IMG/VR virus record: IMGVR_UViG_3300028584_001240
DNA length: 64,000 nt
Strand: one strand, 5' to 3'
Source of the DNA: a virus
Taxonomy: Duplodnaviria > Heunggongvirae > Uroviricota > Caudoviricetes
Part shown: piece by piece, positions 1,156 to 63,492 of the stretch
Layout of the letters: every line of letters begins with the position of its first letter
Numbering within the stretch: position 1 is the first letter of the stretch
The notes under the pieces: model-generated
Seen by the model: the letters and a program-made list of their open reading frames with translations, nothing else
Databases searched by the model: none
Told to the model about the DNA's origin: nothing
Translations under genes and position numbers: made by a program

Positions 1156-1178
1156 AAAAGGCCACTTCGGTGGCCTTT
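1154..1178. terminator. Bidirectional intrinsic terminator with C(UUCG)G loop
   Basis: AAAGGCCAC-TTCG-GTGGCCTTT between convergent genes. Confidence 0.85.
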
Positions 1179-1851
1179 AATATATCTTTATCAATGTTAA
1201 TTGAGCTAAATCTTTAAACCCTGTAAAGCCTAGATCTAAATCATTTAAATGGTAGGCTTCTAAAATAGTTTGATGAAGTTGCTTATAATCACCATCGTAA
1301 ACAAGTTGTCCATCAAAATAATTAAAATCATAAGTTTTTTCAAATGGGATAGCCTCAGATGTATCAAGCATTCGTATTTTAGTCCACATCATAGGTTTAT
1401 TATAACGAATAATAAAAATACCACCATCAATTTCTTTATCATCTGCAGACACTTTCAAAACTAATGAAACATCCAATATATCCAACAAATGACCATAAGT
1501 TCGTCTATTAGAACCATCAACAAAGTCATCAGTAACGACAGCGTTAAAGATCTCTTTATCTCTTGAAAAGGCTTCAAACTGTTTTTTTAAAGATGGTATT
1601 TTTAATGAAAATTCTTCATACTCAATAACATTATGAACGAAGCTAAAAAGTTTATCAAACTGAATGGTGCCATTCATCATTTGAGTGTCTACATTGATGT
1701 AAATTCTACCAAAACTGGATGTGATGAAAAAGGTCCACATATAACGTTCACGGCTCAAATAAGTCACATCATTATTATGAGCAATGCCATAATGTGCAAT
1801 AACTAATTTCACTCTATTAAAGAAATTGTTTAAATAACTAGGATATCCCAT
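1177..1851 (-). CDS. Hypothetical protein, paralog of 1870..2535; C-terminal-motif family (variant)
   Basis: Shares RTYGHLLD.LDVSLV, TYDFNY..G.LVYDGDYKQ and FKDLAQLTL with neighbour; ends LTLIKIY. Confidence 0.85.
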   Translation of the reverse strand: MGYPSYLNNFFNRVKLVIAHYGIAHNNDVTYLSRERYMWTFFITSSFGRIYINVDTQMMNGTIQFDKLFSFVHNVIEYEEFSLKIPSLKKQFEAFSRDKEIFNAVVTDDFVDGSNRRTYGHLLDILDVSLVLKVSADDKEIDGGIFIIRYNKPMMWTKIRMLDTSEAIPFEKTYDFNYFDGQLVYDGDYKQLHQTILEAYHLNDLDLGFTGFKDLAQLTLIKIY

Positions 1852-1869
1852 AGCAGTTACCTTTCATTG

Positions 1870-2535
1870 TTAATAGATCTTCATTAAAGTTAATTGAGCC
1901 AAGTCTTTAAAATTTTTAAATTTCAATTCTGAATCGTTTAAATTGTAGGCCGCACTGACTTCCTGATGAATTTGTTTATAGTCCCCATCATAAACAAGCT
2001 TGCCATTCACATAGTTAAAATCATACGTGTTTTCAAACTGAAGATAATAGACTTCATCCAGCATTAACATTTTACTACATGATTGAAGCGTATTATAACG
2101 AATAATAAAATTGTTTTCATTAATATCGACATCATCAATAGACACATTAAACACAAGTGAAACATCCAACAAGTCTAATAAATGGCCATAGGTTCTTTTC
2201 ATGGTGTAATCATTGTCGTGCTGAGTAACAAATGCATTGAAAATGTCTTTATCGGTTTCAAATGCTTGATAATATTGCTGCGACATAGGAAATTTTAGAT
2301 TAAATTCATCAACATTTATACTATGCTTACTCGATTGAAAGAGTGTATTAAATTCAATCTGCCCTTGAAAAGTATTAAGATCCACGGAAACAAAAACAAT
2401 ACCAGTGCTGGTTTGGATATAATACGTTGCGTTATCTCCTTTATTACGAAACTTTCCAATTTCATCATTGTAAGTAATTCCATAATGAGACAAGATTAAT
2501 TTTACTCGATTTAAGAAGTTATCTAATTGGCTCAT
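1870..2535 (-). CDS. Hypothetical protein, paralog of 1177..1851; C-terminal-motif family
   Basis: 221-aa ORF, ends LTLMKIY. Confidence 0.85.
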   Translation of the reverse strand: MSQLDNFLNRVKLILSHYGITYNDEIGKFRNKGDNATYYIQTSTGIVFVSVDLNTFQGQIEFNTLFQSSKHSINVDEFNLKFPMSQQYYQAFETDKDIFNAFVTQHDNDYTMKRTYGHLLDLLDVSLVFNVSIDDVDINENNFIIRYNTLQSCSKMLMLDEVYYLQFENTYDFNYVNGKLVYDGDYKQIHQEVSAAYNLNDSELKFKNFKDLAQLTLMKIY

Positions 2536-2536
2536 A

Positions 2537-3403
2537 TCAATAGCCCATCATATCAAAAATGTCTTTATAACGCTTATTAGGTAAGGCTTCTTCCGTATAT
2601 TCAGGATTAATGCTTCTGACCAGTGCCATTGAAAACTTAGCTACAAATTCGGATACATCTTTATATGCAGTAAATTCACTAAAATCAAAAATAAAATATT
2701 CATCACCCGCCTCATTGGGTTTAAATAACTCAGCATTATCTTTACCAGCGGTTACACTGACTTTGTAATATTTTTCGCCTTCACTTTCAATTAAAACAAC
2801 CGAAACATGACCACCCGATGATGGTTTGGTAACGGTATAATGCAACAACTTAAATTCATGTCCTGCTTTATCAAAGACAACTCCACAATTAGAAAAAATA
2901 GGGGGTGTCTTACGAGCATTAACCAATGTATTATCTGAACCAAAAATAGACTTATTATTCTTCATTGCGAAAACTAACTGCAGTAAACTTTTTTTATTGT
3001 TATTAAATGACGCCGTAACTTGTTGAGATTTAGTCAGAAAATTTTTCCAACGATCATTAAATGTCTTTTCAGGTTCAAAAGGATTAAATACATAACAGAA
3101 AATGAAATAGGTCATTTTAGAAAGATCGATAAAATCACTATGAAAGATATCGTAATCATTTTTATTAAGTGTTGCTAACATCTTATCGCTATTCACAATA
3201 GCACAGGTGTTATCTTTTGAATGGTTACCAATATCATTATCACCATACATTAAAGAACCTTTATCAAATGACATTGTTTTGATACTTGAAAAGACAGGCA
3301 GTTCATGGACGATACGTTTTAGCAACCAATATTTATCCTTATCCAGCATGGTCATGCCAAATACAATATTAGAATAAAGCTTTTTTAAAGGATTGCTGCT
3401 CAT
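2537..3403 (-). CDS. Hypothetical protein, paralog of 3465..4328; C-terminal-motif family
   Basis: Start moved to MSSNP (GGAG SD). Shares KYWL, LNKN..D.F..DF..LS.M.YF.FCY.F.PF and TPPI...GVVFD with neighbour; ends IFDMMGY. Confidence 0.85.
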   Translation of the reverse strand: MSSNPLKKLYSNIVFGMTMLDKDKYWLLKRIVHELPVFSSIKTMSFDKGSLMYGDNDIGNHSKDNTCAIVNSDKMLATLNKNDYDIFHSDFIDLSKMTYFIFCYVFNPFEPEKTFNDRWKNFLTKSQQVTASFNNNKKSLLQLVFAMKNNKSIFGSDNTLVNARKTPPIFSNCGVVFDKAGHEFKLLHYTVTKPSSGGHVSVVLIESEGEKYYKVSVTAGKDNAELFKPNEAGDEYFIFDFSEFTAYKDVSEFVAKFSMALVRSINPEYTEEALPNKRYKDIFDMMGY

Positions 3404-3428
3404 ATGAATCTCCAACAAAATATAGCTA

Positions 3429-3457
3429 AGTATACAGTATTTTAATAATATTTACAA
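3429..3457 (-). promoter_or_regulatory. sigma70-type promoter
   Basis: TTGTAA-N17-TATACT on minus strand upstream of 2537..3403. Confidence 0.6.
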
Positions 3458-3464
3458 TTGTTTT

Positions 3465-4328
3465 TTAATAGCAAGTCATGTCAAAAATAATTTTATCTCG
3501 AATGGTCGGATGTTTATCTTCTTTGTAGTCTGGATAAATACCTTTGACCATCATCATTGAAAAGTCTCCTATGAATTCAGTCACAACTTTATATCTAATA
3601 AATTCATCAAGGTTTAATTTTAAATAATCATAACCCATAACACTGTTTACAAGTTCACCCCTTGAAAATACATTAATTTTACTTAATTTATAATATTTTA
3701 CGCCATCTTTTTCTAGTAAAATAACTGAAACACGATCCATTGTGTTAGGTATTTTTACAATATATTCTAATAATTTACACTCCAAACCATTGGAATCAAA
3801 AACAACTCCAAATTCAGTTGAAATAGGTGGTGTCATGTTGCAATTTTCCAAGGTATTTGCAAACTCAGGGGGCGTAATATTATTGTTTAAATTAGTCAAT
3901 AAATCAACAGTTGCTTTAATTGTTTTCCCAAATGAAGTGATTTTATCATGTTTTAATGCATTAAAAAAGATCCGCCAACGCTCAATGTAATTAGCCTCAG
4001 CATTAAAAGGCATAAAGAGATAACAAAAAACAAAATAGGACATTTGTGACAATTCTAAAAAGTCATCATTAAAACAATCTGCATTATTCTTATTGAGCAT
4101 TGAGAGCATATTTGAATCTTTAATAATAGCAGTTTGATGGTCAACACTTATTTTACCAATATATTTTTCACCATAATATAAGTCACATGTGCTAGGTTTA
4201 AACTTTTTAAAGATTGAAAATGGAAGTGATTTTTTAGAAATACATTTTTCCAACCAATATTTATTATTAGACATTGAAATGATATTTAAAAATCTATAAT
4301 AAATATTGCTGAATAAATTTAAAATCAT
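3465..4328 (-). CDS. Hypothetical protein, paralog of 2537..3403; C-terminal-motif family
   Basis: 287-aa ORF, AAGGAG SD, ends IFDMTCY. Confidence 0.85.
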   Translation of the reverse strand: MILNLFSNIYYRFLNIISMSNNKYWLEKCISKKSLPFSIFKKFKPSTCDLYYGEKYIGKISVDHQTAIIKDSNMLSMLNKNNADCFNDDFLELSQMSYFVFCYLFMPFNAEANYIERWRIFFNALKHDKITSFGKTIKATVDLLTNLNNNITPPEFANTLENCNMTPPISTEFGVVFDSNGLECKLLEYIVKIPNTMDRVSVILLEKDGVKYYKLSKINVFSRGELVNSVMGYDYLKLNLDEFIRYKVVTEFIGDFSMMMVKGIYPDYKEDKHPTIRDKIIFDMTCY

Positions 4329-4397
4329 AAATACTCCTTTAAAGATGAACTATTATACAATATTTTAATAATTTTAACAACAAAAAAAGCAATGGAT

Positions 4398-4982: not shown

Positions 4983-5000
4983 AGTAACCTCCGATATTAG

Positions 5001-5009
5001 TTAAAACAT
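5001..5009 (-). other. Minimal upstream ORF (Met-Phe-stop) with strong SD
   Basis: GGAGGT-N8-ATG TTT TAA ending 18 nt upstream of the 4398..4982 start. Confidence 0.4.
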
Positions 5010-5046
5010 CGAAAATTACCTCCATAAAACTTAGCGAATAAAAATA

Positions 5047-5283: not shown

Positions 5284-5292
5284 TAATTTCTC

Positions 5293-7737: not shown

Positions 7738-8226
7738 TTAAGGTTGTTCTCGCAAGAGACGACGAACTTCCATCAGAACACGACCTAGCAAATTCAGCCC
7801 AAGCCATTTCTCTGGATTAGTGGCATCAGGATGGTTCTCATCCATACCGATACCCCAAATAGTATCATAGGGTGAAGCTTCAACCAGCACCAAGTCATCA
7901 GTAGCCAGCAACTGATCTTTCAAGTGTGTATTTTGAAGAAACTTTTGAAGGCAACCTTTTACCATAATAGCAAAACATTCTTGTTCCCATACTTCGGATA
8001 CGAAGCCTTTAACTTTTCGACCTAACGCCTTTTGATTACGTGGAATAGGTTCGGCCAACACCTCTTTTGCAATAGCTGTATCACCAAAGAGCATAGCTTT
8101 CGCATACATCATCCATTGTTCAGCACAATTGAATCGAACACCATCAATGGTAAAGGGCGATAGATGCCAGTTTGACATATAGTCTTTGGTCGTCCAGAAG
8201 AATGCAAAGCCGCTTTTAATTTTCAT
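7738..8226 (-). CDS. NADAR (YbiA-like) family protein
   Basis: SNWHLSPF, AEQWMMYAKAMLFGD, KALGRKV, KFLQN, LVEASPYDTIWGIG and GLNLLGRVLMEVR are canonical NADAR motifs. Confidence 0.93.
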   Translation of the reverse strand: MKIKSGFAFFWTTKDYMSNWHLSPFTIDGVRFNCAEQWMMYAKAMLFGDTAIAKEVLAEPIPRNQKALGRKVKGFVSEVWEQECFAIMVKGCLQKFLQNTHLKDQLLATDDLVLVEASPYDTIWGIGMDENHPDATNPEKWLGLNLLGRVLMEVRRLLREQP

Positions 8227-10510: not shown

Positions 10511-11266
10511 TTATAGTTCATTCGTTACAACTAATTCTTTAAACACGGTTTGTCTTTGATTGATGTTATAGATTAAACGTTCAAGACCAAAAGCTATTTC
10601 CAGCACAAAACATTCTCTTGGTTGATTTTTGACCATCGGTTGATAAGTAAAATCTTTTCTTAATGACACTGAACAGACTTCCATCCATTTATCATTATTG
10701 AATACTTCTATATCAATTGTTTTTAAAGAATAATCAGGCAATCTATCGGAAAGAACAATTCTGACTGGTAAAGCAACCACATCCAAGAATATTTGAGCCA
10801 AAGGTTCTATAATACTTTCTTGGTAGTTATTCTTTGTGTCTTTTGTATATAAACATTGAAATTCTTGTTGATAGAATTCTTTGTATCTGCAGTGTTTGGT
10901 TACTTGGTCCTGTTCACGTCTAAAACTCTTTGATGTCTGCCATACACACAATGGTGGCATGTAATCCTGAGATTTTAAAAGATGTTCCATATACAAATAG
11001 GAACTTGCCGTAGTTTCTGGTTTAAGCACAATAGCGTCATGATTATGTTCTTCCTGTACCCATATATCTTCATCCGTATAATTAGCATTGACTAATTCTC
11101 TCGGAATTAAGCAAGGGGCTTCTATTTGGATAAATCGCCATGATTTATTCTGAGCAAAAAGTAACTCTTGAATTTCAAATTCCATCAGTTTAACCAGATA
11201 GTCTTTCAACATCAAGTCTCGTTTGTTTAAAAAAGGTAAAGCATTAAAGTTGTAAATAAATTCCAT
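10511..11266 (-). CDS. Class II aminoacyl-tRNA synthetase catalytic core, alpha2-type GlyRS-like, lacking the anticodon-binding domain (251 aa)
   Basis: Start moved to MEFIY (AGGAG SD). LKPETT, motif 2 KSFRRE..R.KEFYQQE, LPDYS..T.DIE...W.EV.....R.DF, motif 3 VLEIAFGLERL; ORF ends shortly after motif 3; Gly leader upstream. Confidence 0.8.
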   Translation of the reverse strand: MEFIYNFNALPFLNKRDLMLKDYLVKLMEFEIQELLFAQNKSWRFIQIEAPCLIPRELVNANYTDEDIWVQEEHNHDAIVLKPETTASSYLYMEHLLKSQDYMPPLCVWQTSKSFRREQDQVTKHCRYKEFYQQEFQCLYTKDTKNNYQESIIEPLAQIFLDVVALPVRIVLSDRLPDYSLKTIDIEVFNNDKWMEVCSVSLRKDFTYQPMVKNQPRECFVLEIAFGLERLIYNINQRQTVFKELVVTNEL

Positions 11267-16693: not shown

Positions 16694-17449
16694 CTATTTA
16701 TTAAATAAAACCATATGTGCTAACTTAAGTTGAGCATGAACTAAATCTATATCCAATGGTTTCGGTAATGGACCATAAAATTGTGTGAATATTTCGTCAA
16801 AACTTTCTAATGAATCCATTAATATATAATGTTTTAAGAGTAGGTTTTCGTCTTTGACATTAAAGCCCTGTTGGTAAGTTCTAAACTTAGCATTGTATTT
16901 ATCAACAATGCCATTAAAAAGTCCCCTCTGATTGCCTACAAACAGTTTTCCAACAGGATTATAATCCTTGTCAAAATCATAGCCAATATAGAATTCTGAC
17001 ATCATATATTTAATTTTAAAATAATTATGAAGATGAAATGCTTCATGAATATAGCAAAGTTCAAAGTTGTCATTATAAAACATAATTTTATTTTCAACCG
17101 AATCTTTAAACGATTGTTCATCACCACAGTGGATAAATAAAGTTAAGTCCAGATTTAAAAGAACATGATATTTAAATTGAGACGCAAGTGGACTATCGAG
17201 AATTTTAATAAAATCATCAATTTTTGTATCCACTGTTTTTTGATATACGGAGTCTATAATAGATACATTAGTTTTAGTGTCTTTAAATTCAATAGTAACA
17301 CTGACCCCATCATAAGAAGTCATTACCGTAATATCATCTAATGTAAATACTCTTTTTAGCAAACCTTTATGATTGATTGATTCCAGTCCAATAGCAATCA
17401 TACGTTCTAATTGAGATTTCTCAATATTTTTAACTTTATTTATCATCAT
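16694..17449 (-). CDS. Hypothetical protein; C-terminal-motif family (variant)
   Basis: ATGA overlap with upstream gene; ends LAHMVLF-NK. Confidence 0.8.
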   Translation of the reverse strand: MMINKVKNIEKSQLERMIAIGLESINHKGLLKRVFTLDDITVMTSYDGVSVTIEFKDTKTNVSIIDSVYQKTVDTKIDDFIKILDSPLASQFKYHVLLNLDLTLFIHCGDEQSFKDSVENKIMFYNDNFELCYIHEAFHLHNYFKIKYMMSEFYIGYDFDKDYNPVGKLFVGNQRGLFNGIVDKYNAKFRTYQQGFNVKDENLLLKHYILMDSLESFDEIFTQFYGPLPKPLDIDLVHAQLKLAHMVLFNK

Positions 17450-46746: not shown

Positions 46747-47592
46747 CTAAATTTTTATCATATCACTGATTTCTTTAATTCGTTTTTTTTCTTCATTGTA
46801 AAAATCAAACAATTCAATATGAGAATCAAAATGAGGAATAACATAATCATCCACATTGTAATGTTTTTGAATGGCTACCCTAAAAGGTTCTGAAATCATA
46901 GAAGGGTTCTCTTTAATTGTTGACCAAAAATCAATACTTGTGAACTTACCAGAGATAATGCCTTCCATTGGTTTCAATTGATAACATAATTCTTCCACTC
47001 TCGCTACATTCTTCTTATATTCAATACCATTACTATAAATATTAAAAAAGAATCCTGATGTATCGCTCATGTATTGAAACTCACAATCAAAAGAAATATC
47101 AGATGTTGGTTTAGTGTTAGGATCGGTTGCTTTCAATACATGCTGCTTATATTGCATGGGTGAGTTATCTTTATTGTAATAACTGTCATACAGAATGCTA
47201 AAACGTTCAGCGTCAGCACCTAAAAATTCTTTAAATGTTTCAACATTGAAATCATCTTCACGATTATCATCAAATAAAATACTTTGGAAACGATCATTAG
47301 CAATAGAAATATTAAACTTATACATTGCTCGATAACCTTTAATATATGTACAATCTAGATCACTGTCAATGGAGAAGTCGAGAGCCATAGGCAAGCAAAG
47401 GTCTTTATACCGAACAATGACATCAATGAGCCGTTTACCACGAAAAACAACATAATTAATCACATGAATATCATTGTTAGAAAGATCTTGGATAACAGGA
47501 AAAATGTCATTAAGCACTTTGCGAGCAAAGTCATCTACAATAAAGGCTTTCTTACGCTTATTTCCTTGCTGGACAAAATCAATCATACTCAT
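46747..47592 (-). CDS. Hypothetical protein; C-terminal-motif family
   Basis: Start MSMID (AGGAG SD); ends ISDMIKI. Confidence 0.8.
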   Translation of the reverse strand: MSMIDFVQQGNKRKKAFIVDDFARKVLNDIFPVIQDLSNNDIHVINYVVFRGKRLIDVIVRYKDLCLPMALDFSIDSDLDCTYIKGYRAMYKFNISIANDRFQSILFDDNREDDFNVETFKEFLGADAERFSILYDSYYNKDNSPMQYKQHVLKATDPNTKPTSDISFDCEFQYMSDTSGFFFNIYSNGIEYKKNVARVEELCYQLKPMEGIISGKFTSIDFWSTIKENPSMISEPFRVAIQKHYNVDDYVIPHFDSHIELFDFYNEEKKRIKEISDMIKI

Positions 47593-48403: not shown

Positions 48404-49192
48404 CTAAATTTGATCCATTTCTAAAACTAAAAGGGCTTTGTTTAAATCAAGTAAAATTTCGTTTATGGATTGATAGGTGTTATTAATAAAATCGGTAAGA
48501 CTGGGTTTAAGAAAATGTGACGAAAACAAATATTTCCAGTAATCTTGAACATCAAGGTTCTTTACATTAATCATAGTAAAGTTTTGAGAATTAAATGAAA
48601 ATGAATCGCCATCGTAATAAAAACTCATATTAGCATGAAATATTGTAGAAGTGCTTTGATAATGATTAATGAAATAACACATATTATTTCGCGTCAAATC
48701 AATTACGATCTTTAAAGATTTTCCATTTTTATTATCTATATGTGGATAGAAATAAAGAGATTCCAATACACCAGATAAATCAACAGAATGCTTAGTGGGT
48801 AATGTTGCAATCAATTTTTGAGTGTAATCATCTACCTGCGTTCTCAATACATTCTTCACTGGACTGTTAATGTGATGATAATCGTCATCATTAAATTTTT
48901 CGTCACGAGAATACACGACTGTATAATAAAGTGAGATATCCATCGAGTATCCTTTACTTGTTTTTGAGTCTTGAATATACCTAAATGGGATACGGAGTTC
49001 ATCAATATGAATGAAACCTTTACACTCAAAATTATTGTCTAAACAGGTAATACTGAAGACATTTATTTCAACAGACCGACCAAAATATTCATCCGCAATA
49101 GTTTTCATTAATGTATCGTGATGTGGAATGAACGAAAGTTCTCCAAAATGGGTATCGACCACTTTATGTTCTGTCAATTTTTTTTCATTCAT
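48404..49192 (-). CDS. Hypothetical protein; C-terminal-motif family
   Basis: GAGG SD; ends VLEMDQI. Confidence 0.8.
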   Translation of the reverse strand: MNEKKLTEHKVVDTHFGELSFIPHHDTLMKTIADEYFGRSVEINVFSITCLDNNFECKGFIHIDELRIPFRYIQDSKTSKGYSMDISLYYTVVYSRDEKFNDDDYHHINSPVKNVLRTQVDDYTQKLIATLPTKHSVDLSGVLESLYFYPHIDNKNGKSLKIVIDLTRNNMCYFINHYQSTSTIFHANMSFYYDGDSFSFNSQNFTMINVKNLDVQDYWKYLFSSHFLKPSLTDFINNTYQSINEILLDLNKALLVLEMDQI

Positions 49193-50911: not shown

Positions 50912-51619
50912 TTAAAAATCAACAATTTCACTTAAACGAAACAACTCATTAAGATCACTATCGAAATCAATACTTGCATCTTCCAAGCAAGAAAATATAT
51001 CAGACTCTTTAAAAATATGCTTGCAGACCGTATCAAAATCACCACTGTATATTTTCACTTTATTTTTTGTTTTCTTACTATCACTGTATTTGCAACGCAA
51101 GACTATTGTTGAATCAAGAAAATGAAACTCCATATTTAAATTAAATTCACCTTTAATATCATAGATGACAACATGATCGCCACCATGAACTTCATTTTCT
51201 ACATTTTCAGCTACTAAATTATAGCTGTAATTGAAGGTAGCATTTTTTTGATGTGTAAAGTGTTCATAAGCGTCAAGAAAAAACTGTTCTGCATGGCAAC
51301 TATTAAGTGTGTTCAACTTCTTAAATACTTTGAAAACGTCTTCAAAACTAGAATAATGTTCGTTAGCAATAAAACCAATTGAACTATAAGCAGTAGCTGA
51401 AAAAGAAAAACTACCGTCTTGTTCTAATGTGTAAAAATAAGGAAACCCTTCATCAATAACACAATGGCGAATACCATTAGAATAATGAACAAGAATATTT
51501 TGAGCAGCCGGACTAAATACAGCATGCATACCATCAGTCTTAGGTGTCTCAAAAGTGTTTTCAAGTTCGGAACCATTTTTAAAACTTCTAAGAATCTTGT
51601 GATTTTTTCTTCTGTCCAT
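50912..51619 (-). CDS. Hypothetical protein; C-terminal-motif family (variant)
   Basis: GAGGA SD; ends LSEIVDF. Confidence 0.8.
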   Translation of the reverse strand: MDRRKNHKILRSFKNGSELENTFETPKTDGMHAVFSPAAQNILVHYSNGIRHCVIDEGFPYFYTLEQDGSFSFSATAYSSIGFIANEHYSSFEDVFKVFKKLNTLNSCHAEQFFLDAYEHFTHQKNATFNYSYNLVAENVENEVHGGDHVVIYDIKGEFNLNMEFHFLDSTIVLRCKYSDSKKTKNKVKIYSGDFDTVCKHIFKESDIFSCLEDASIDFDSDLNELFRLSEIVDF

Positions 51620-51772: not shown

Positions 51773-52900
51773 ATGGGAAAGCAAAATAAAAAGAAAATTG
51801 AAGAGTTTGAATCGAGCGAAATGCGATTCAAGCAATCTATTGCCAATCATTCAAACAAAGTAAAATTTGAAAACTCAACCAAACAAGAAGTGCCAGCCAT
51901 TAATGAAATTGAAACTGAGTTGCTTGCTTTCGCTGTTAATGATCCTGATGCTTTCAAATACACCCTGAAATCAAGCAATCGTGACAAAAAAGTCAAACTT
52001 TTGGCAAAATTTCTTTTTTCAAAATACAAAACCCCAAAAATTCTTGAACAAGTATGGGATGGCCCAGCCATTCCAGATCGTGCCCACACCAAAAAGAAAT
52101 CATCAGCAATTCGTTATCGTAAATGGTTCGTGTGTGCCGCCACAGGTGGCTCTCTTTACAAGGAACATTTGAAACCATTCTTGACAAAAAAAGAAGGGGC
52201 TAATTTTGTTAGTTGTCCATTTGATTTGACCATCGATCAAGCCATTGTTTACTCTATTGCATTGGCAGAAAGTGATCGTGCCGGTGCTGCATTGCGTATC
52301 GCTAAATCAAAATTAAATGAAAAAAACTATGAAACTGAGTTCTGGAAGAATGTTATCAAGTTCTTTGCCCAAGAGGGTAAAACACCAGAAACCGTAGAAC
52401 AAATTAACGACTTGGTTGACTTTATCAATGCTCAAAAGCTTGAAAATAACAACTTTAATATTTTTGGTAATGGTTGGACACTTGCCTCGCTTATCAAAAG
52501 AACACATGATTGGCACTATGAACTTCGTCGTGCTAAAAAAATGGGTACCTTTACTTGGGATGGTCATGATTTCAAAAATTTCAGCTTTACTAAGCGTAAA
52601 GATGAATACAATGCTGAGGAATGGACACTGACTCAAATTAAATCATCCAAAGAATTGCTGGAGGAAGGTAAGCAACAACACCATTGTGTATTTGGTTACA
52701 AAAACTCTTGCATTGATGGCTCAACATCCATTTGGTCTTTGAAAATGAACGGAAAACGAAAAGTGACCATTGAAGTGCGTTCTAACTATAACATTGTACA
52801 AGCTCGTGGTTTTGCCAACAGAAAAACAACAGGTGAAGAAGACAACTTTATTAGACTTTGGGCTAATGAAAACAATCTTAGCCTCAACTATCGTTATTAA
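51773..52900 (+). CDS. PcfJ domain-containing protein
   Basis: RTHDWH, ELLEEGKQQHHCVFGY...C..G..SIWSL, TIEV, IVQARGFANR. Confidence 0.85.
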   Translation: MGKQNKKKIEEFESSEMRFKQSIANHSNKVKFENSTKQEVPAINEIETELLAFAVNDPDAFKYTLKSSNRDKKVKLLAKFLFSKYKTPKILEQVWDGPAIPDRAHTKKKSSAIRYRKWFVCAATGGSLYKEHLKPFLTKKEGANFVSCPFDLTIDQAIVYSIALAESDRAGAALRIAKSKLNEKNYETEFWKNVIKFFAQEGKTPETVEQINDLVDFINAQKLENNNFNIFGNGWTLASLIKRTHDWHYELRRAKKMGTFTWDGHDFKNFSFTKRKDEYNAEEWTLTQIKSSKELLEEGKQQHHCVFGYKNSCIDGSTSIWSLKMNGKRKVTIEVRSNYNIVQARGFANRKTTGEEDNFIRLWANENNLSLNYRY

Positions 52901-53382: not shown

Positions 53383-53400
53383 AAGACTCCTAGGAGTCTT
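53383..53400. terminator. Perfect 18-bp palindrome, probable bidirectional terminator overlapping the AlaRS stop
   Basis: AAGACTCCTAGGAGTCTT flanked by A- and T-rich tracts. Confidence 0.7.
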
Positions 53401-54265
53401 CTTTTTTTCCAAACACAATAACATATTCATCCATTCGGCCCACATTAAAGCCATAGGTATCCATCCAAAATATATTATCTTTATCTTTAAAGCGTTTATG
53501 GTTTCTTTTCCTCATATAAGTAGAATAAGCTTTTTCTTGATTGAAACGAATTCGATCAAAAAATTCATTGCTTATTTGACTACCATGAAAAATAGATTCA
53601 GTGATTAGTTTCTTCAAAATGTATTCTTTCTTATTGTGACCAAGTAATACACCATCGTCTATCAATAATAAAGCAGTTTCTTCAAGGATTTGAAGCTTAC
53701 TTTTCGATGTTAAGCTTCCAGTCACTTCAAGCAGTCTTTCAAGTCCAAAACCCACATCTATGCAAGTATCCATTGTATTAACAATATTCCCTATCTCAAC
53801 ATAGTTCTTGTAAAACTCTGTGCAATATCCACCAATACTACCATCTGACCAGACACATTCAGGATCTAAACGTATTTCAACGCCATATTCAGAATAAAGG
53901 TCTTTCCAGTCTTCATATTTATCAGGGTGAATAGTTACATAGTCTGGAATAATACCCAGCTTATTAACAAAGGAATACATGAAATCAATAGCTTTTTTAA
54001 GTGTCCATTGTCTAAATGAAAATAAACCTATCATTTCAAATTTTAAAAAGTGTGTGCCATCACCTATTTCGTCTAGGTCATTAATTCTTAGGCATTGCTG
54101 GATGTTAGTAAATGTGTTGGTGTATTCTAGGTTAGAATATAAGGGTTTAAATTGTTGCATACCAGATGTGGTAAACAGAGTTGTATCGTCAGGACTTTTG
54201 ACAGATGAATTTATATGAAAGTCCAATTCATATAATCTGGAATGGTCTTTGTATGTTTCGATAAT
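53390..54265 (-). CDS. Alanyl-tRNA synthetase N-terminal catalytic core (no editing or C-Ala domains); start uncertain, may need a -1 frameshift or ATT reinitiation from the leader
   Basis: DDTTLFTTSGMQQFK, QQCLR.NDLDEIGD.TH...FEMIG.FSF, W.DG..GGYCTE, VEIGNIV, IDVGFGLERL. The frame stays open and AlaRS-like upstream of the TTG at 54226, which has no SD. Confidence 0.85.
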   Translation of the reverse strand: MIETYKDHSRLYELDFHINSSVKSPDDTTLFTTSGMQQFKPLYSNLEYTNTFTNIQQCLRINDLDEIGDGTHFLKFEMIGLFSFRQWTLKKAIDFMYSFVNKLGIIPDYVTIHPDKYEDWKDLYSEYGVEIRLDPECVWSDGSIGGYCTEFYKNYVEIGNIVNTMDTCIDVGFGLERLLEVTGSLTSKSKLQILEETALLLIDDGVLLGHNKKEYILKKLITESIFHGSQISNEFFDRIRFNQEKAYSTYMRKRNHKRFKDKDNIFWMDTYGFNVGRMDEYVIVFGKKEDS

Positions 54266-54416: not shown

Positions 54417-55616
54417 TTATTTATCAAAATTAAGAATGCTTAATAATTGCATAGTCATATTACTAATCTTACCATCAGGGCTTTGTTTAATTACTCGTTT
54501 TTTAAAATAATCAATAAAATGAATATAAGCTTTATCTAATGTTTCAAAGTTGTGTTCGTAAACAACGTCTCTACCGTCCTTAACCTGAACATAGATATCC
54601 AGTTTAAAATCAATTTTAAAGCTTTGTTTGTTATCGAAGTAAATTTCGGAATCAGAACTCACACTGAACAAATCAAAATGTGTAAGAAACTTTTTTTCAT
54701 CACCCAACGTAGGTAAAAATAAAGAAAAATGATTAACAATAAGGCCATTAATGGTGTATTGGTATAAAATCATAGCATTGATTAATTGTAATAAATTCTT
54801 CGACCAATCATTAACCAATAGAAGGTCGAACAACTTTTCAGAGTGTTTTAAATTTTTTACTGGAAAAGTGACCCTCTCATTCCCATAAAACTTGCCATTA
54901 TTATTGAGTTTTCGTGACATATCAACGGTAGGCTTACTGAGTAGTGTCCTCAATGGCTTGTCTCTATTCATAACCGATGATAACATAATTCCATCATAAT
55001 GCTCATTCATATATTGAGCGATGTTTTTTTGACTATAATCTTTATTTAAGAACTCTCGATAATGTGGGGCTTTAAGATTATACAAAGTATTAATAATTGT
55101 TTGAATTAAATCAATATTCTCCTTTGTGTATTCAATATTATGAGTTTGTTTAAAATAGTGTGTAATTTTGTCATTTAAAAGAACAATCAATTTTTCAATT
55201 TTCATGGTTCTATCGAAAGAGAAATCCAAACCAGAAATAGAGAACTTAACATTATTTGTATCATCTACGACAATATGCAAAACATTGAGAATAAATACAC
55301 TTACTTTATTATCTTTAAAAGCGAAGGAAACAGTAAACTTTTCACCACGACTACCTGCAGTAGTTGATTCATTAAAAATAGATAACAGATGCTCAATATA
55401 ATCAGTTAATGTGGCAGATTGAGATTTTTTGATACCTAAAAAAAGAAAACTGACAATTTTATTAAGAGTTGCATTAAATGAAATAAGATATCCACATTCA
55501 TTTTTGATAGTTGAAAAATAGTCATTAACAATAGGGATTTCTACACTATCAAATTTCTTTTCTAATAGCAATTGTTTAAAATTTTTCTTTGATTTCTGTA
55601 AGTATTCAAATAACAT
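54417..55616 (-). CDS. Hypothetical protein; C-terminal-motif family (variant)
   Basis: AAGGAG SD; ends LLSILNF-DK. Confidence 0.8.
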   Translation of the reverse strand: MLFEYLQKSKKNFKQLLLEKKFDSVEIPIVNDYFSTIKNECGYLISFNATLNKIVSFLFLGIKKSQSATLTDYIEHLLSIFNESTTAGSRGEKFTVSFAFKDNKVSVFILNVLHIVVDDTNNVKFSISGLDFSFDRTMKIEKLIVLLNDKITHYFKQTHNIEYTKENIDLIQTIINTLYNLKAPHYREFLNKDYSQKNIAQYMNEHYDGIMLSSVMNRDKPLRTLLSKPTVDMSRKLNNNGKFYGNERVTFPVKNLKHSEKLFDLLLVNDWSKNLLQLINAMILYQYTINGLIVNHFSLFLPTLGDEKKFLTHFDLFSVSSDSEIYFDNKQSFKIDFKLDIYVQVKDGRDVVYEHNFETLDKAYIHFIDYFKKRVIKQSPDGKISNMTMQLLSILNFDK

Positions 55617-55626: not shown

Positions 55627-56325
55627 TTAAATATTAATCATTGCTGATAGTGCGTGTGAATCTTTTTCGTTCTTGATAAAATCTTCATAAGTCACTTCAT
55701 GGTTTCTAAAATAAAGGGCATGAACTACTTTCTTAGGTTCTTTAATAAGATCATGACACAAAGATTCAAAGTCATAAGGTAGATCCGCAACATCACGAGT
55801 TTTGCCATCTACTTTAATTCGAGTTCTAACATTCGTGATAATTCGCTCATTTTTCTCATCAACTTCAAAACCAGAGTTAAAGAATATATGATTAACAAAT
55901 TCGATTTTGTAATCATCATTCAAGTAATACAGTTTTTTAATCAACAATTTTTTATTGATTAGTGTGCTATCCATCCAAAAATTATAATAGCTATGGTCAC
56001 TAGGCTTCCCATCTGAACGAAGTGGGAAATATTCAAACTCAACAACTCGTTGATTATCAACTTCAATTTCAATATCAAATGTTGAAACTGTCACACAACC
56101 ATTGTAGGCAGGTGTGCAGGTTTTAAATATTTTAATAAGATAAGATTTCCCACCTTCAAAAATAGGCTTTAACTGAGTCATAAAATTAATAATCTTCGCA
56201 TTAACTTCCTGATAATCCATGTCATCATTAATATCAGCAATCATCTCATCCCATTTTTTACTTGGAAACTTACCAAAGAAACGTTTTGGTAATTCATATT
56301 TCTTTTTTACTTGATAATCAATCAT
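55627..56325 (-). CDS. Hypothetical protein; C-terminal-motif family
   Basis: Start MIDYQ; ends LSAMINI. Confidence 0.8.
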   Translation of the reverse strand: MIDYQVKKKYELPKRFFGKFPSKKWDEMIADINDDMDYQEVNAKIINFMTQLKPIFEGGKSYLIKIFKTCTPAYNGCVTVSTFDIEIEVDNQRVVEFEYFPLRSDGKPSDHSYYNFWMDSTLINKKLLIKKLYYLNDDYKIEFVNHIFFNSGFEVDEKNERIITNVRTRIKVDGKTRDVADLPYDFESLCHDLIKEPKKVVHALYFRNHEVTYEDFIKNEKDSHALSAMINI

Positions 56326-58317: not shown

Positions 58318-58857
58318 ATGTTAAGATATTTTCCTTTGAAAAAAAATAATATCACCATTAATGATAGCAATACAGCGTTTCTTTTTTCATATAAAGACAC
58401 GACTGAAATTCCTATTGCCCCTCATCCGGGTTCATTTGGCTATGTGCGTAAGAACCATATTCATGAAGGTGTAGACCTGTATGCCGAAGAAGGCGACGAT
58501 GTGGTTGCTATTGAAAATGGTGTCGTTCGTAAAATCATCCCATTCACAGGTGAAATTGCTAACACGCCTTGGTGGAATAACACCTATTCTATTTTCGTTG
58601 AACATGATGGTTACATTATTAACTATGGTGAACTTATCCCTGTTACTCATTTAAAAGAAGGTGATGTCGTTAAAGCGGGTGAAGTGATTGGTCACATTAG
58701 AACAGTTCTATTAAAAGACAAAGGCAGACCGATGGCGATGCTACATATTGAGATGTATCAACCAGAAGCGATTGTTCCGGTGACTGAATGGTCATTAAAT
58801 ACAGGGAAACCTGAATATTTACTAGACCCTACTGAACTATTAAAATCTTTGCTATAA
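58318..58857 (+). CDS. M23 family metallopeptidase
   Basis: FG..R...HEGVDL (HxxxD), V.AIE.G.V, YGEL, G..V.AGE.IG, LHIE, DPT. Confidence 0.85.
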   Translation: MLRYFPLKKNNITINDSNTAFLFSYKDTTEIPIAPHPGSFGYVRKNHIHEGVDLYAEEGDDVVAIENGVVRKIIPFTGEIANTPWWNNTYSIFVEHDGYIINYGELIPVTHLKEGDVVKAGEVIGHIRTVLLKDKGRPMAMLHIEMYQPEAIVPVTEWSLNTGKPEYLLDPTELLKSLL

Positions 58858-59467: not shown

Positions 59468-59496
59468 TTGATTTTTTTAATTGTTACAGGTATAAT
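59468..59496 (+). promoter_or_regulatory. sigma70-type promoter
   Basis: TTGATT-N17-TATAAT. Confidence 0.7.
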
Positions 59497-59521
59497 CATG
59501 GGAATTATTAAGGAGAATTAA

Positions 59522-61438
59522 ATGTTCGCTAAAGACTTATTTCAACCCAAAGCAAATGATAAAGAAACATTTCTTGCCGTCTTCGAAAGTTATAAAAATT
59601 GGATTTATGACTTTATCAAAAATAACAAAGGCATGAAGTTCAATGATTACATGAAAGAAAGCGATATCCAATCTAAAGCTATGTCTGACATTTTTCTTCG
59701 TTACAACTACCTCTCAAATGTCAAGAAAACTGATGAGGTGAGTGAACTGTATGAATTTATGGTCACTGAATATGAAAAATACTCTGATCCGTTTAGCCAA
59801 GACCCTGTGCATTATGAATTTATCAAATCATTGGTAACTGAAAATGAAACAGAAGAACGCCTTAAAAAACGTTATATCGAAGCCTTCGAGAAGTCTGGTA
59901 TTGATTTGCCAAAAGACAAACAAGATGAATTGAATGCTATTAGCCAAGAGCTATCCACTGCTCAAATGCTGTTCAGCAAAAACCTCATTGACTCTAAAAA
60001 AGAGTGGTCATACACCCTAACACCTGAAGTTAAAGTGACACTATCAGAAAAAGACCTTGAATCTTTTAAAGAAATTGATGGCGAACTGGTAATGAAATTT
60101 AACCAGAATGCAATGGGTGACATCATGGTTAAATCCCCATCAGATGAACTGAAGCAAATCATCTATGAAGCCAGTGGTTATCCGGGTTCACCACGTTCAA
60201 ACTTTGACAACACCGAAGTGACTAAAAAGATTTTGAGCTTGAAACAACAGATTGCAGCTATCATGGGTTATAAATCTTATACTGAAATGGCGTTGGAAGA
60301 TCGTATGGCTCCCACTTACGATGTAGTAACCAACTTCCTTGGTCGTATTAAAGAAAAAATGCAACCGTTGGCAAAAGTAGAATACGAAGCCCTCAATCAG
60401 TTTGCTAAAACTGAATTTGGTGTGGACACCATTCCAAAATGGAATCGTGGGTTCTATGGCAACATCAAGAAAGAAAAATTGCTTAACTATGAATTCAACA
60501 TGGAACGTCCATATTTCAACAAAAATCGTGTATTTGAAGGTGTTTTCAATCTTGTTGAAAAACTGTTTGGTTTCACTTTTGTCAAAGATACAGAAGCGTT
60601 TGACCTTCCTTATGAAGACAGTGAATGTTTTAAAGTGTATGAAGATGGTGTATTGAAAGCTCGCCTTATTGTGGACATGTATGAAAGAGAATTGAAAGGT
60701 AGCGGTGCTTGGGTATCCTGTCTTTCTGGTGTAACTCTGGACGAAGTAGGTCTTGTTTCTCTTTGCTGCAACATCAACAAGAAAGATATCGGTATGGATA
60801 TTGATGAGATTGTCACCTTCTTGCACGAAATGGGTCATGCAGTTCACCACTTCAGTTCCAAGGTTCAATATTCTGATATGGCTGGTACCAGTGGTATGGC
60901 TCGTGACGCGGTTGAAATCCCAAGTCAGATGCTTGAACAATTCGCTTACGATCCTGAGTTTTTGATGTCAGTGTCTGGGCATGTTGAAACAGGCGAGAAA
61001 ATACCACAAGTTATGCTGAATTCAATCATTGCTTCAAAGAACTACAACGTAGGTAGCATGTATGCACGTCAGTTGGTGCTTGCCACCTTCGATATTAACC
61101 TTTATAACACGTTTGAAGGTGATATTACTGATTTCTACAAATCCATTGCGAATGAAATTCTTCCATCCAAAGTGGATGACGATACTTCTTTCCCAAATAC
61201 CTTCGGTCACATCTTTGCAGGTGGTTACAGTGCCGGTTATTATGGTTACATGTGGGCTGATATTTACTCAGTTGATGCGTTTATGCATGTGATTGAAGAC
61301 AAAGAAAAGAATGCTATCAAATTCAAGAAAGAATTCTTAGAAAAAGGCAGCAGTGTTGAGCCATTGAAACTGTATGATAACTTCCGTGGTCAAGAAGTGA
61401 GTATTGATAACTTCCTAAGTTACTATGGTGTAAGTTAA
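59522..61438 (+). CDS. M3A family oligopeptidase (oligopeptidase A/Dcp-like)
   Basis: FEKSG..L, K.SGAW, FLHEMGHAVHH (HExxH), DAVEIPSQMLE, FGHIFAGGYSAGYYGYMWAD. Confidence 0.93.
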   Translation: MFAKDLFQPKANDKETFLAVFESYKNWIYDFIKNNKGMKFNDYMKESDIQSKAMSDIFLRYNYLSNVKKTDEVSELYEFMVTEYEKYSDPFSQDPVHYEFIKSLVTENETEERLKKRYIEAFEKSGIDLPKDKQDELNAISQELSTAQMLFSKNLIDSKKEWSYTLTPEVKVTLSEKDLESFKEIDGELVMKFNQNAMGDIMVKSPSDELKQIIYEASGYPGSPRSNFDNTEVTKKILSLKQQIAAIMGYKSYTEMALEDRMAPTYDVVTNFLGRIKEKMQPLAKVEYEALNQFAKTEFGVDTIPKWNRGFYGNIKKEKLLNYEFNMERPYFNKNRVFEGVFNLVEKLFGFTFVKDTEAFDLPYEDSECFKVYEDGVLKARLIVDMYERELKGSGAWVSCLSGVTLDEVGLVSLCCNINKKDIGMDIDEIVTFLHEMGHAVHHFSSKVQYSDMAGTSGMARDAVEIPSQMLEQFAYDPEFLMSVSGHVETGEKIPQVMLNSIIASKNYNVGSMYARQLVLATFDINLYNTFEGDITDFYKSIANEILPSKVDDDTSFPNTFGHIFAGGYSAGYYGYMWADIYSVDAFMHVIEDKEKNAIKFKKEFLEKGSSVEPLKLYDNFRGQEVSIDNFLSYYGVS

Positions 61439-61439
61439 G

Positions 61440-61982
61440 TTGAACATTCCAAACGATTTATCGCTCTGGTTTGCGGAAGTCTTTAATGACACACTTACTG
61501 CGAGTGATATTTTGCTAGGTAACAGCGAACTGGGGTACACGCCCCAGTTGAGCTTTACTGATGGAAATATAGTCAGTGTTCATCGTGTCCCCTATACAGT
61601 TATCAATAAGAAATACAGACTTGTCTCAAATGAAGTGCCTATTCATTACTATGATAATATCAAGTTGATTAGGAAATTAGAAAGATTGTTAGAAGTGCCG
61701 TTTGTGATGTTATTCGAAAAAGAGAAAGAGAATGTATTAATAAATATTTCAAATGTAAAAATGGATAAGACAACTCAACAGACGATATTTGAAGAAGATT
61801 ATGCTGTACATTTACTTGTTAATCATGGCGATTATCAAATCATTAACATTAAAGATCCCTTTTTCTTTGAAACCTTAGATGATATGTTAACAACAAAACT
61901 AGTATCAATGGTGACCGATAAAAAATTTTCTGAACTATCTAATGATGAATTAATAATGGTCAGAATTTATCACTACAAATAA
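61440..61982 (+). CDS. Hypothetical protein; C-terminal-motif family (variant)
   Basis: Ends KKFSELSNDELIMVRIYHYK. Confidence 0.75.
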   Translation: MNIPNDLSLWFAEVFNDTLTASDILLGNSELGYTPQLSFTDGNIVSVHRVPYTVINKKYRLVSNEVPIHYYDNIKLIRKLERLLEVPFVMLFEKEKENVLINISNVKMDKTTQQTIFEEDYAVHLLVNHGDYQIINIKDPFFFETLDDMLTTKLVSMVTDKKFSELSNDELIMVRIYHYK

Positions 61983-61992
61983 GGTATGTTTA

Positions 61993-62727
61993 ATGAAAAA
62001 TAAAATTACATTAAGAGAAGATGAAATTGCAATAATCTACAAAAACATTAGTGAACACCTACTGATTGATAACTTTTCAGGATTAAGTCTGCTTAATTGG
62101 AAATCAATGTTATTTAATCAAGATGATTTAACACAAGAAGATTTCATGAAAATAATGAAAACAGCTAATCTGTGTGTGCCTAGTTGGCAAAGATTGGTTA
62201 ACTATCGTGAATTTTCGACTGAGTTATTATTAAGGTTTAACTCAATACATAAAGAATTCATAGAACCCATTACGTTTGAAGTAGGAGAAAATACTCAGGA
62301 TAGACGCTTAATTTTTCGAGTTCCTGAATATTTGATAAATAAGGATTTTAAAGAATACAACACCGAAATATTTTTTGGTTCACTGCCACTTGAACTAATG
62401 GAATCAATTATTACTGTTTTTGGTGAATTCGTTCCTAAAAAAAGTGGAGTTATGTCTTATATCAAGATAGACGAAATGTGTATTTATTTACATAAGTTCA
62501 TATTATTTGAAGAAAACAATATTCGCTATTGTCATAAATATATATTTGAACCGTTTTCAAGAATTGATGCTAATGAAAGGATGATATACCAAATAACAGA
62601 TAACTACGACTTTATAAAAACCGTCAATGAATTTATCACCATAAGATACACTGAAGAGTTATTTGAAAAAGAGTTTAAAGATTTGACTAATGATGAGCTA
62701 ACTGTTCTTAAAATGAGAGTGATATAA
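61993..62727 (+). CDS. Hypothetical protein; C-terminal-motif family
   Basis: Ends KEFKDLTNDELTVLKMRVI. Confidence 0.8.
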   Translation: MKNKITLREDEIAIIYKNISEHLLIDNFSGLSLLNWKSMLFNQDDLTQEDFMKIMKTANLCVPSWQRLVNYREFSTELLLRFNSIHKEFIEPITFEVGENTQDRRLIFRVPEYLINKDFKEYNTEIFFGSLPLELMESIITVFGEFVPKKSGVMSYIKIDEMCIYLHKFILFEENNIRYCHKYIFEPFSRIDANERMIYQITDNYDFIKTVNEFITIRYTEELFEKEFKDLTNDELTVLKMRVI

Positions 62728-63492
62728 ATGAAAAAGTATAATAATTTTAGTGATTTTGCTAACCATGTTAAAGTTTTAAAAAATAATAAAATAGAAGAAT
62801 CCCTTGAACGGTTAAAGACGGGTATCTTCGTTGATGATTTATCTCATTTAACAATTGAACAGTTACAAGATATGATACCCGATGAGAAATCTGAACACTC
62901 GGACTATATATTGAATAATAGAAAAGACATCATATATCATGACTGTTTATTTGAAAAAAGTGTAAGCTGGAATACAAATTATGATACATTTTCACTGATT
63001 TATAAAATATTCATTCCAAATAAAAGAAAGAAAATTGATATTAAAAAATCATTTCTTTTAACTAATAATGATGGTTTACCATCTGATATAGAATTTGTAA
63101 TAGAAGATATTTATTTGAAAGAATCTTTTGTCGAATCCAATACAATAACGAATTATAACAATGAAGATTTAAGTCTTATTAAACTATACAACACGTTAAT
63201 CAATAATACGGGGCCGGTTGATTATGTTACAAAACACGTTTTGAGAAAGACAACTAAAATTATAGTATCTGATGTTCCTAAATTATATATTTCATATTCA
63301 TTATTAACAAGACAAATAATAAATTCTGGTTTCTCTAAATACTTTATGAGAATAAGTGATACATCAAGCAACTCTTTTGCAGAAAAACTAAGAAATCTTT
63401 TAGAAACTGAATACACCTTACCAATAGTAGCAAAAAAAATTGATGAATTAACAGAAGATGACATAACCGTTATCCAGATGGGGTTAATATGA
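62728..63492 (+). CDS. Hypothetical protein; C-terminal-motif family
   Basis: Ends KKIDELTEDDITVIQMGLI. Confidence 0.8.
   Translation: MKKYNNFSDFANHVKVLKNNKIEESLERLKTGIFVDDLSHLTIEQLQDMIPDEKSEHSDYILNNRKDIIYHDCLFEKSVSWNTNYDTFSLIYKIFIPNKRKKIDIKKSFLLTNNDGLPSDIEFVIEDIYLKESFVESNTITNYNNEDLSLIKLYNTLINNTGPVDYVTKHVLRKTTKIIVSDVPKLYISYSLLTRQIINSGFSKYFMRISDTSSNSFAEKLRNLLETEYTLPIVAKKIDELTEDDITVIQMGLI

Follow-up and report, generated by a model that had tools for sequence, protein, structure and literature searches.

Many dissimilar proteins encoded in a 64,000-nucleotide stretch of viral DNA (Caudoviricetes; IMG/VR record IMGVR_UViG_3300028584_001240) end in the same short hydrophobic motif, with a methionine exactly four residues from the end. 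This whole stretch will be called the window, the motif will be called the tail, and the proteins which have it carriers or tagged proteins. The tail is also found in related contigs: In the elements which contain it, 20–31% of the open reading frames (ORFs) are tagged. We consider that the tail may well be a docking or addressing handle for one cytoplasmic receptor, a reading to which we give a probability of about 0.55. This receptor, which we infer, would read the tail end-on, and the free C-terminus would be part of the recognition. Many different bodies would in this way be plugged into, or delivered to, the same machine. The carriers make up a very large repertoire of lineage-specific proteins which diverge fast.

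The window has a GC content of 31% and is densely coding, with both strands in use. It contains 70 non-overlapping ORFs which start with ATG and have at least 80 amino acids (aa). Met is found exactly at position -4 in 22 of them, while the other positions from -1 to -40 have from 0 to 5 Met each. The residue at -7 of these 22 tails is L in nine cases, V in seven, I in five and T in one, and 14 tails end in Ile. A first-pass annotation, made from the letters of the window, had reported 22 genes with Met at -4, 21 of them with L, I or V at -7 and 14 with a terminal Ile. These counts are reproduced exactly in our set of ORFs. The pattern [LIV]xxMxx[IVLFYM] before a stop codon appears 19 times, 0.14 being expected from its internal frequency. 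When each paralogous family is counted only once, 16 of the 62 window families have Met(-4), with a binomial P = 1.8e-11.

Counts beyond the window come from six relatives (G001–G006) rather than from the full replicon to which the window belongs. G001 is an entire 437-kb relative with 520 ORFs and G002 a 193-kb relative with 266 ORFs; a conserved untagged ORFan of 711 aa was used as a lineage marker to find G002–G006. Met(-4) is present in 102 ORFs of G001, evenly spread along the contig, compared with 8–16 at neighbouring positions, and in 59 ORFs of G002. Counts at neighbouring positions in the window, G001 and G002 range from 0 to 16. At the family level, 95 of 471 families have Met(-4) (P = 5e-50). 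The more distant relatives are nearly devoid of tails: There are 3 in the 288 ORFs of G003, none in the 95 of G004, 1 in the 78 of G005 and 2 in the 110 of G006. With only 0–3 tails per contig in these four relatives, the tail is clade-specific.

A position-specific scoring matrix (PSSM) for the C-terminus, which the first-pass annotation had proposed as a check, gives the same result. When it is built from the window and G001, it finds 44–46 of the 266 C-termini of G002, which did not enter its construction, at a threshold reached by none of the 571 C-termini of the tail-less relatives. When position -4 is omitted from the matrix, 90 C-termini exceed the 99.9% quantile of internal windows, and the residue at -4 in these 90 is M in 83 cases, I in three, A in two, L in one and F in one: Met is 92% specific at a position which does not enter the score. 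The median tail score is not reached by any of 130,649 internal windows. Only about five tails have one or two extra C-terminal residues, and the motif is almost never internal or extended.

The anatomy of the tail was derived from 88 independent families. The conserved part corresponds to the last 14 residues or so, with the consensus Phi-x-[D/N]-x-Phi-x-[LVI]-Phi-[E/K]-M-Phi-x-[I/Y/L]-COOH, where Phi is hydrophobic. Position by position, there is a hydrophobic residue at -13, D or N at -11, hydrophobic at -9, K or T at -8, L, V or I at -7, hydrophobic at -6, E or K at -5, M at -4, hydrophobic at -3, any residue at -2 and I, Y or L, in order of preference, at -1. A T/S-x-[D/N]-[D/E] helix cap opens many tails, and an upstream L-[S/T]...[L/I] element recurs in a gapped alignment. 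The whole module, probably some 30 aa in length, has a helical prediction, commonly with a second short helix before the terminal one. The net charge of the last 20 residues is -1.3 in tagged proteins and +0.4 in untagged ones, so a membrane-binding amphipathic helix is unlikely. A search with the tail-module profile against all PDB chain sequences gave no match (best E 7.3), and we have found no description of the motif in the limited library of literature that was searched.

A trivial origin of the motif should be considered: repeated DNA where genes end, a non-standard genetic code or wrongly called stops could produce similar protein ends. Nothing was found in favour of such an origin. A total of 12 different codons are used at -7 in the window tails, which are followed by TAA, TGA and TAG stops and by unrelated downstream contexts. 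Third-codon identity between tails of different families is at the background level once the fixed ATG is discounted. The constraint therefore acts on protein and not on DNA. Tails are also conserved in orthologues from independent assemblies. The chance of an artefact at the nucleotide or annotation level is practically nil, and we regard this explanation as refuted.

Conservation of the tail is higher than that of the proteins which carry it. In tagged orthologue pairs the last 14 residues are 44% identical and the bodies 33% (p = 0.036); in untagged pairs the order is reversed, with 39% for the last 14 residues and 46% for the bodies (p = 6e-4). The tail is retained in homologues down to 24–27% identity. 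It is invariant within one family of carriers, family A (23 sequences). Another, family B (9 sequences), is found in no more than eight clusters out of 1.8 billion representatives: Seven are full-length and keep the tail, down to 24% identity, and the eighth is an N-terminal fragment of 85 aa. These comparisons support the view that the tail is a protein-level unit, located at the exact C-terminus and under purifying selection.

The tagged ORFs of the window are listed below. In addition to the 22 canonical cases, the first-pass annotation had pointed out six variant tails. They are real: Four of them (those at 54417, 28553, 61707, which is the first ATG of 61440–61982, and 1177) have an orthologue or paralogue with the canonical Met, as given in the list.

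1177–1851, minus strand: 224 aa, variant tail ...LTLIKIY (Ile at -4); 50% identical paralogue of 1870–2535
1870–2535, minus strand: 221 aa, tail ...LTLMKIY; a single Pfam match far below cut-off, none credible
2537–3403, minus strand: 288 aa, tail ...IFDMMGY; paralogue of 3465–4328
3465–4328, minus strand: 287 aa, tail ...IFDMTCY
16694–17449, minus strand: 251 aa, variant tail ...LAHMVLF-NK (two extra residues)
18621–19367, minus strand: 248 aa, tail ...LYDMTKI
19364–20236, minus strand: 290 aa, tail ...TFEMIKI
21726–22628, minus strand: 300 aa, family B, tail ...IYAMATI; AlphaFold model
22719–23693, minus strand: 324 aa, family B paralogue, tail ...VYEMTVI
25880–26725, minus strand: 281 aa, tail ...IHEMVKM
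26770–27546, minus strand: 258 aa, tail ...LTAMVDI; the G001 homologue ends ...LIEIIDV
28553–29311, minus strand: 252 aa, variant tail ...LIKILSY; the G001 orthologue ends ...TLMRMNQY
33522–34187, minus strand: 221 aa, tail ...LVSMMQF
36987–37775, minus strand: 262 aa, tail ...LFKMVSI
37801–38604, minus strand: 267 aa, tail ...VSNMLKV
40865–42088, plus strand: 407 aa, atypical tail ...LQQMKNS
42103–43350, plus strand: 415 aa, atypical tail ...LEQMKNS
44305–45120, minus strand: 271 aa, family A, tail ...VEKMYTI
45133–45936, minus strand: 267 aa, family A, tail ...VEKMYLI; AlphaFold model
45951–46739, minus strand: 262 aa, family A, tail ...LEKMYVI
46747–47592, minus strand: 281 aa, tail ...ISDMIKI; the G001 orthologue, 22% identical, still ends ...GEMIKI
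48404–49192, minus strand: 262 aa, tail ...VLEMDQI
50912–51619, minus strand: 235 aa, variant tail ...LSEIVDF
54417–55616, minus strand: 399 aa, variant tail ...LLSILNF-DK; the G001 orthologue ends ...KILKMMNI
55627–56325, minus strand: 232 aa, tail ...LSAMINI
61440–61982, plus strand: variant tail ...MVRIYHY-K; 180 aa from a TTG start, 91 aa from the first ATG; the orthologue has 181 aa and ends ...TVKMYHE
61993–62727, plus strand: 244 aa, tail ...VLKMRVI
62728–63492, plus strand: 254 aa, tail ...VIQMGLI

The last three genes follow an M3 oligopeptidase gene on the plus strand (59522–63492 for the whole array), with gaps of 0–10 nt between them; the same arrangement is kept in G001. Tight operonic placement is a more general feature of tagged genes: It is found in 34% of them and in 16% of untagged genes. 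Promoter and k-mer analysis did not reveal any upstream motif or expression class specific to tagged genes.

Carriers form 95–101 clusters when tail-trimmed bodies are compared by all-against-all BLAST and five rounds of jackhmmer, and 92 of these clusters are tagged in every member. The first-pass annotation had sorted the window carriers into about 19 groups without visible similarity outside the tail. This holds for BLASTP and phmmer, which only match the tail-trimmed window bodies to those of tandem paralogues. On the other hand, structural neighbours and C-terminal profile links, which will be described below, hint at partial common ancestry. Median identity to the best G001 match is 29% for tagged window proteins and 42% for untagged ones: By this measure, tagged bodies evolve faster than their untagged neighbours. 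Tagged families have no homologues in the tail-less relatives, and none of the 14 proteins common to tail-bearing and tail-less relatives is tagged.

None of 91 tagged G001 proteins has a Pfam match at E ≤ 1e-3, and searches with 20 window carriers (Pfam) and seven (PHROGs) only gave isolated matches far below the cut-off. A search of a protein atlas with family A detected only weak unnamed viral clusters. By comparison, the 127 longest untagged G001 proteins match 56 Pfam families in one batch and 27 in the other, including Hsp70, GatA/B, several aminoacyl-tRNA synthetases (aaRS), TilS, a TolC-like protein, MFS transporters, an MCP, NAD ligase, S49 and M48 peptidases, a nine-member DEDDh family and TnpB. 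The window genes which can be recognised are also tail-less: They are ArgRS, a GlyRS-like core, an AlaRS catalytic core, Thg1, NADAR, GNAT, isochorismatase, HAD, M3 and M23 peptidases and PcfJ. The earlier observation that no recognisable enzyme has the motif is thus confirmed in the window. Its extension to membrane proteins holds in the window and fails in the clade, where six tagged G001 proteins have two to four strong transmembrane helices, followed by a soluble C-terminal domain of 95–127 aa and the tail. By the positive-inside rule, five of these six proteins are predicted to have their C-terminus in the cytoplasm.

The main rival to a docking handle is a single hyper-diverged paralogous superfamily, derived from an ancestor of about 250 aa. 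The terminal helix would then be a structural part of a shared C-terminal domain (antiparallel sheet and helices), the last stretch which is still recognisable, and no common partner would be needed. Several observations point in this direction, and also weigh against a handle. Carriers have a narrow range of sizes, with an interquartile range of 219–279 aa and 84 of 116 between 200 and 300 aa. Profile searches with the C-terminal 120 aa link some families over about 100 aa, which reduces 88 families to 74 components. Neither body of the two families with an AlphaFold model, A and B, matches a solved fold above noise among 48,161 chains. Nevertheless, both families have the same top two structural neighbours, 4akr_D and 7a0h_B, which are subunits of actin-capping protein, and they also share 7zhm_D, 4h62_Q and 6b7l_A. 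Given these shared weak neighbours, the narrow sizes and the links over about 100 aa, partial hidden common ancestry of the carriers is plausible, not as one obvious family.

The family B model is also a point for the superfamily. It has a beta-rich body followed by three short helices (251–261, 269–277 and 289–299), with a predicted local distance difference test score (pLDDT) of 86–93. The invariant residues P267, F271, L275, Y295, M297 and I300 fall in this helical end-module. The model suggests that the family B tail is part of a small helical unit, which may pack on itself or on the body. Other features agree with the superfamily: Paralogues are arranged in tandem arrays, carriers lack Pfam domains, and all the transmembrane carriers retain a soluble C-terminal domain of about 100 aa. 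Two further observations weigh against a handle. We have found no receptor, as described below, and the tail has drifted in about one third of the window–G001 orthologue pairs, either by a change of Met to Ile or by a shift of one or two residues. The constraint on the tail, as judged from these pairs, is strong and not absolute.

The family A model gives a different picture. The core, residues 1–222, is confident (pLDDT 80–93), while the last 45 residues have a pLDDT of 43–51 and form a lone helix (248–265) outside the core, preceded by a low-confidence linker. In spite of the low pLDDT, these 45 residues are the most conserved segment of the family A sequence. The first-pass annotation had named one common fold with the tail buried, in structure predictions, as an argument against its proposal of a handle. 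The two models disagree on this point, with an unpacked tail in A and a tail in a confident end-module in B; such a fold is neither established nor excluded by them.

Besides the unpacked tail of family A, other evidence does not agree with the superfamily. A purely structural helix would not hold on to Met, rather than Leu, Ile or Phe, in 92% of some 90 families with bodies too diverged to be linked, nor would it be so intolerant of C-terminal extension. The decrease from 88 families to 74 components is small. Profile–profile comparison of families A and B, which we carried out in search of kinship, found none (hhalign probability 0.05%). We consider the superfamily possible, though on the unlikely side. 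The docking handle is favoured over an ordinary core helix for four reasons: The tail keeps an exact register with the end of the protein, it hardly tolerates extension, it is specific for Met even in families which have otherwise diverged, and it is present on both soluble and membrane carriers with a cytoplasmic C-terminus.

Another explanation without a separate hub would be a zipper, in which tails of different carriers bind each other to form mixed oligomers. In favour of a zipper, about two thirds of the terminal helix is hydrophobic (positions -9, -7, -6, -4, -3 and -1), and in the monomer model of family A the helix is unpacked. Bundling, however, does not need a helix which ends exactly three residues past the Met, and we find the zipper highly improbable. 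Co-folding of the C-terminal modules of families A and B, with two copies of each, gave a score of 0.05, compared with a mark of 0.32; this result is not evidence either way.

A docking handle calls for a reader. We have looked for untagged proteins which are common to G001 and G002 and absent from the tail-less contigs, a screen which left 83 candidates and in which no receptor could be recognised. Among the ten best-conserved candidates, seven are ordinary enzymes or domains, which include a class I aaRS, DUF1643, two RNA ligases, a NAD kinase and a cation-efflux protein; the rest have no credible family match. A full-length Hsp70/DnaK (E ~1e-250) is encoded in G001 (G001:182816–184612) and also in the tail-less G005 (G005:46693–48456) and G006 (G006:61059–62831). 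It is not specific to the tail, so Hsp70 has been discarded as a hub. The M23 peptidase gene at 58318–58857, just upstream of the M3 gene, codes for the most conserved window protein, 71.5% identical to its G001 counterpart. This ORF had no annotation and was considered as a hub; it was discarded when it turned out to be a phage-type M23 peptidase.

The first-pass annotation had proposed variable bodies with a fixed C-terminal handle read by one partner, for example a protease or chaperone hub. The general proposal is strengthened by the terminal register, the purifying selection, some 95 families which cannot be linked and the coexistence of soluble and membrane bodies; it is weakened by the lack of a recognised partner and by bodies which are perhaps partly related. 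The protease or chaperone hub, on the other hand, has received no specific support: Hsp70 is encoded in relatives with and without tails.

Known systems suggest what the handle could do. One use would be to load carriers into or onto a proteinaceous particle or compartment, which we find possible, and by itself rather unlikely. Tails of the HK97 lineage of shells are comparable: encapsulin cargo-loading peptides, the tail of the HK97 protease, lambda C/Nu3 and the scaffold C-termini of P22 and herpesviruses all have a short C-terminal element behind a linker, on dissimilar proteins which join one assembly. As in the cargo of encapsulins, the tagged ORFs have a short C-terminal peptide on otherwise unrelated proteins. 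The setting is also comparable: A large terminase is clearly present in the more distant tail-less relative G003, so the wider lineage includes true tailed phages. A C-terminal targeting propeptide has been proposed for the protease of the giant phage SPN3US, and giant phage heads contain about 50 proteins, with more than 40 MDa of ejection proteins (PMC7411985). There are also clear differences. The sequence is not the same, since the GSL-type consensus of encapsulin cargo is replaced here by Phi-Phi-[E/K]-M-Phi-x-Phi; we detected no family of capsids, terminases or gp23 in the tail-bearing contigs; there are polytopic membrane proteins among the carriers; and the scale, 20–31% of the ORFs, is far larger. 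The search of G001 and G002 covered terminases, the HK97 capsid (PF05065) and gp23 (PF07068), in contigs which may be fragments and for capsids which may be too diverged.

Bacterial microcompartments offer a related case. Their encapsulation peptides consist of a terminal helix of about 18 aa, with a poorly conserved linker, on unrelated cargo; they are not known to be fixed at the very terminus or to contain an invariant Met. The tail resembles them as a terminal helix on unrelated proteins, and differs from them in being locked to the terminus, with Met at -4.

A second use, which we judge about as likely as particle loading, would be to tether carriers to a protease or unfoldase, either as adaptors or through a degron. 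In SspB, the C-terminal peptide which binds ClpX follows a flexible linker, and C-degrons of the ssrA kind depend on a free C-terminus. The layout is similar here, with a body, a flexible linker and a peptide at the exact C-terminus, and dependence on a free end would explain the intolerance of extension. In contrast, the sequences (LRVVK, LAA) are different, no AAA+ protease or ClpP family is found among the strong Pfam matches in G001, and we know of no precedent for hundreds of carriers of tails of the SspB or ssrA type. Service to some other hub is slightly less likely than either of these uses.

A separate rival explanation is a sliding clamp, with the carriers tethered to a ring-shaped DNA clamp by a tail of the PIP or RB69 type. 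RB69 DNA polymerase (gp43) ends in ...SLFDMFDF-COOH, whose clamp-binding peptide ...LFDMFDF-COOH fits Phi-Phi-[acidic]-M-Phi-x-Phi-COOH position by position, all seven of them, at the extreme C-terminus. Its score of 7.4 bits is higher than that of any of the 571 C-termini from the tail-less relatives (maximum 5.1), and the hydrophobic pattern with a period of three is like that of PIP boxes. As a tail, however, it is a poor one, at the 8th percentile of true tags, and RB69 gp55, which also binds the clamp, scores -19.5. No clamp of the DnaN or gp45 type (PF00712, PF09116) was matched in G001. The carriers are ORFans, among them polytopic membrane proteins, and not DNA enzymes. We consider clamp binding highly improbable.

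The tail could also be a secretion or translocation signal for a repertoire of effectors, comparable to the C-terminal signals of type IV (T4SS, Dot/Icm), type VII (T7SS) or type I secretion systems. Quite apart from export, a large, fast-evolving, lineage-specific repertoire with nothing in common but a short C-terminal element read by one machine is also found in the Dot/Icm effectors of Legionella and in the ankyrin/PRANC (F-box-like) proteins of poxviruses. In favour of export, many dissimilar ORFans have a C-terminal signal in common, which is acidic at about -10 to -18 and hydrophobic at its end; a PcfJ-like gene is present in the window and a TolC-like OEP in G001. Nevertheless, the Legionella and poxvirus proteins are directed to eukaryotes, and Pfam finds no PRANC, F-box or ankyrin domain in the 91 G001 and 20 window carriers. 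The strong Pfam matches of the 127 longest untagged G001 proteins do not include any T4SS family, VirB4, VirD4, FtsK-like protein or ABC exporter. Polytopic membrane carriers with a predicted cytoplasmic C-terminus are not what a secretion signal would lead us to expect, and neither is the 1.27-fold enrichment of Cys in carriers. The T7SS C-terminal signal is LxxxMxF, a spacing which differs from L(-7)xxM(-4)xxPhi(-1), and T7SS substrates are WXG100-like helical hairpins, while the carriers are beta-rich proteins of 200–300 aa. Secretion is thus improbable, if slightly less so than the clamp.

Terminal addressing peptides are a known device. Judging from the literature searched, what appears to be new is the motif, its scale (some 95 families, with the share of ORFs given above), the lack of Pfam domains in the carriers and the size of the element, up to 1.9 Mb. 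The machine behind it has a substantial chance of being new as well. Going further than the docking handle itself, we tentatively suggest that a phage-derived replicon which exceeds 1 Mb may have a new system for addressing proteins. This system would comprise several hundred lineage-specific proteins, about one fifth to one quarter of the proteome and including membrane proteins, and a dedicated receptor not described before, such as the entry port of a particle or compartment or a hub for degradation or remodelling. If this is correct, the addressing system would be the internal sorting code of the element. For most genes of huge phages and giant extrachromosomal elements no function is known, and a single 14-residue code gives hundreds of such unknown proteins a common property which is accessible to experiment. 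The identity of the reader would show whether the carriers act as cargo, adaptors, substrates or subunits. Provided that there is a reader, the tail could also be transferred to other proteins as a tag to load or target them.

The tail-bearing elements are giant, AT-rich and related to huge phages. Homology searches place the window's own paralogues on a contig of 1,851,360 bp; a homologue with 93% identity is found on a Joint Genome Institute contig of 1,917,244 bp. Contigs with synteny to the window have 437 kb, 243 kb and smaller sizes. The 1.85-Mb contig is more than twice as large as the largest published phage genome, which has 841 kb (bioRxiv 10.1101/2025.01.14.633092). The replicon may be a megaphage, a provirus-rich chromosome, a giant plasmid-like element or a misassembly. 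The longest ORF in the 437-kb and 193-kb relatives has only about 780 aa. In G001 it is located at G001:191517–193850 on the minus strand (777 aa, phrog_33734). Hypothetical proteins of the Xanthomonas jumbo phages XacN1 and Xoo-sp13 share 45% identity with it; apart from these, we have found no close link to cultured phages.

Other genes of these elements deserve a comment. Three genes of the aaRS type are found within the 64 kb of the window, at 10511–11266 (minus strand), 53390–54160 (minus strand) and 30682–32349 (plus strand). Two of them consist of a minimal catalytic core only: The first is a class II core similar to GlyRS (251 aa), and the second, an AlaRS core of 256 aa, is 70% identical to its G001 counterpart. 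The third is a full-length ArgRS. A Thg1-like tRNA-His guanylyltransferase (43412–44245, minus strand), a NADAR domain protein (7738–8226, minus strand) and a PcfJ-like protein (51773–52900, plus strand) are found amid the tagged genes. The nine paralogous DEDDh exonucleases of G001 are similar to DNA polymerase III epsilon, and TnpB/IS605 is present in three or four copies. In the same contig, phage-type RNA ligases and NAD-salvage genes stand beside genes of cellular type: a TolC-like OEP, MFS transporters, an MCP signalling domain, LysR, DsbA and cation efflux. Examples of these G001 genes are at 165445–167459 and 413528–414487.

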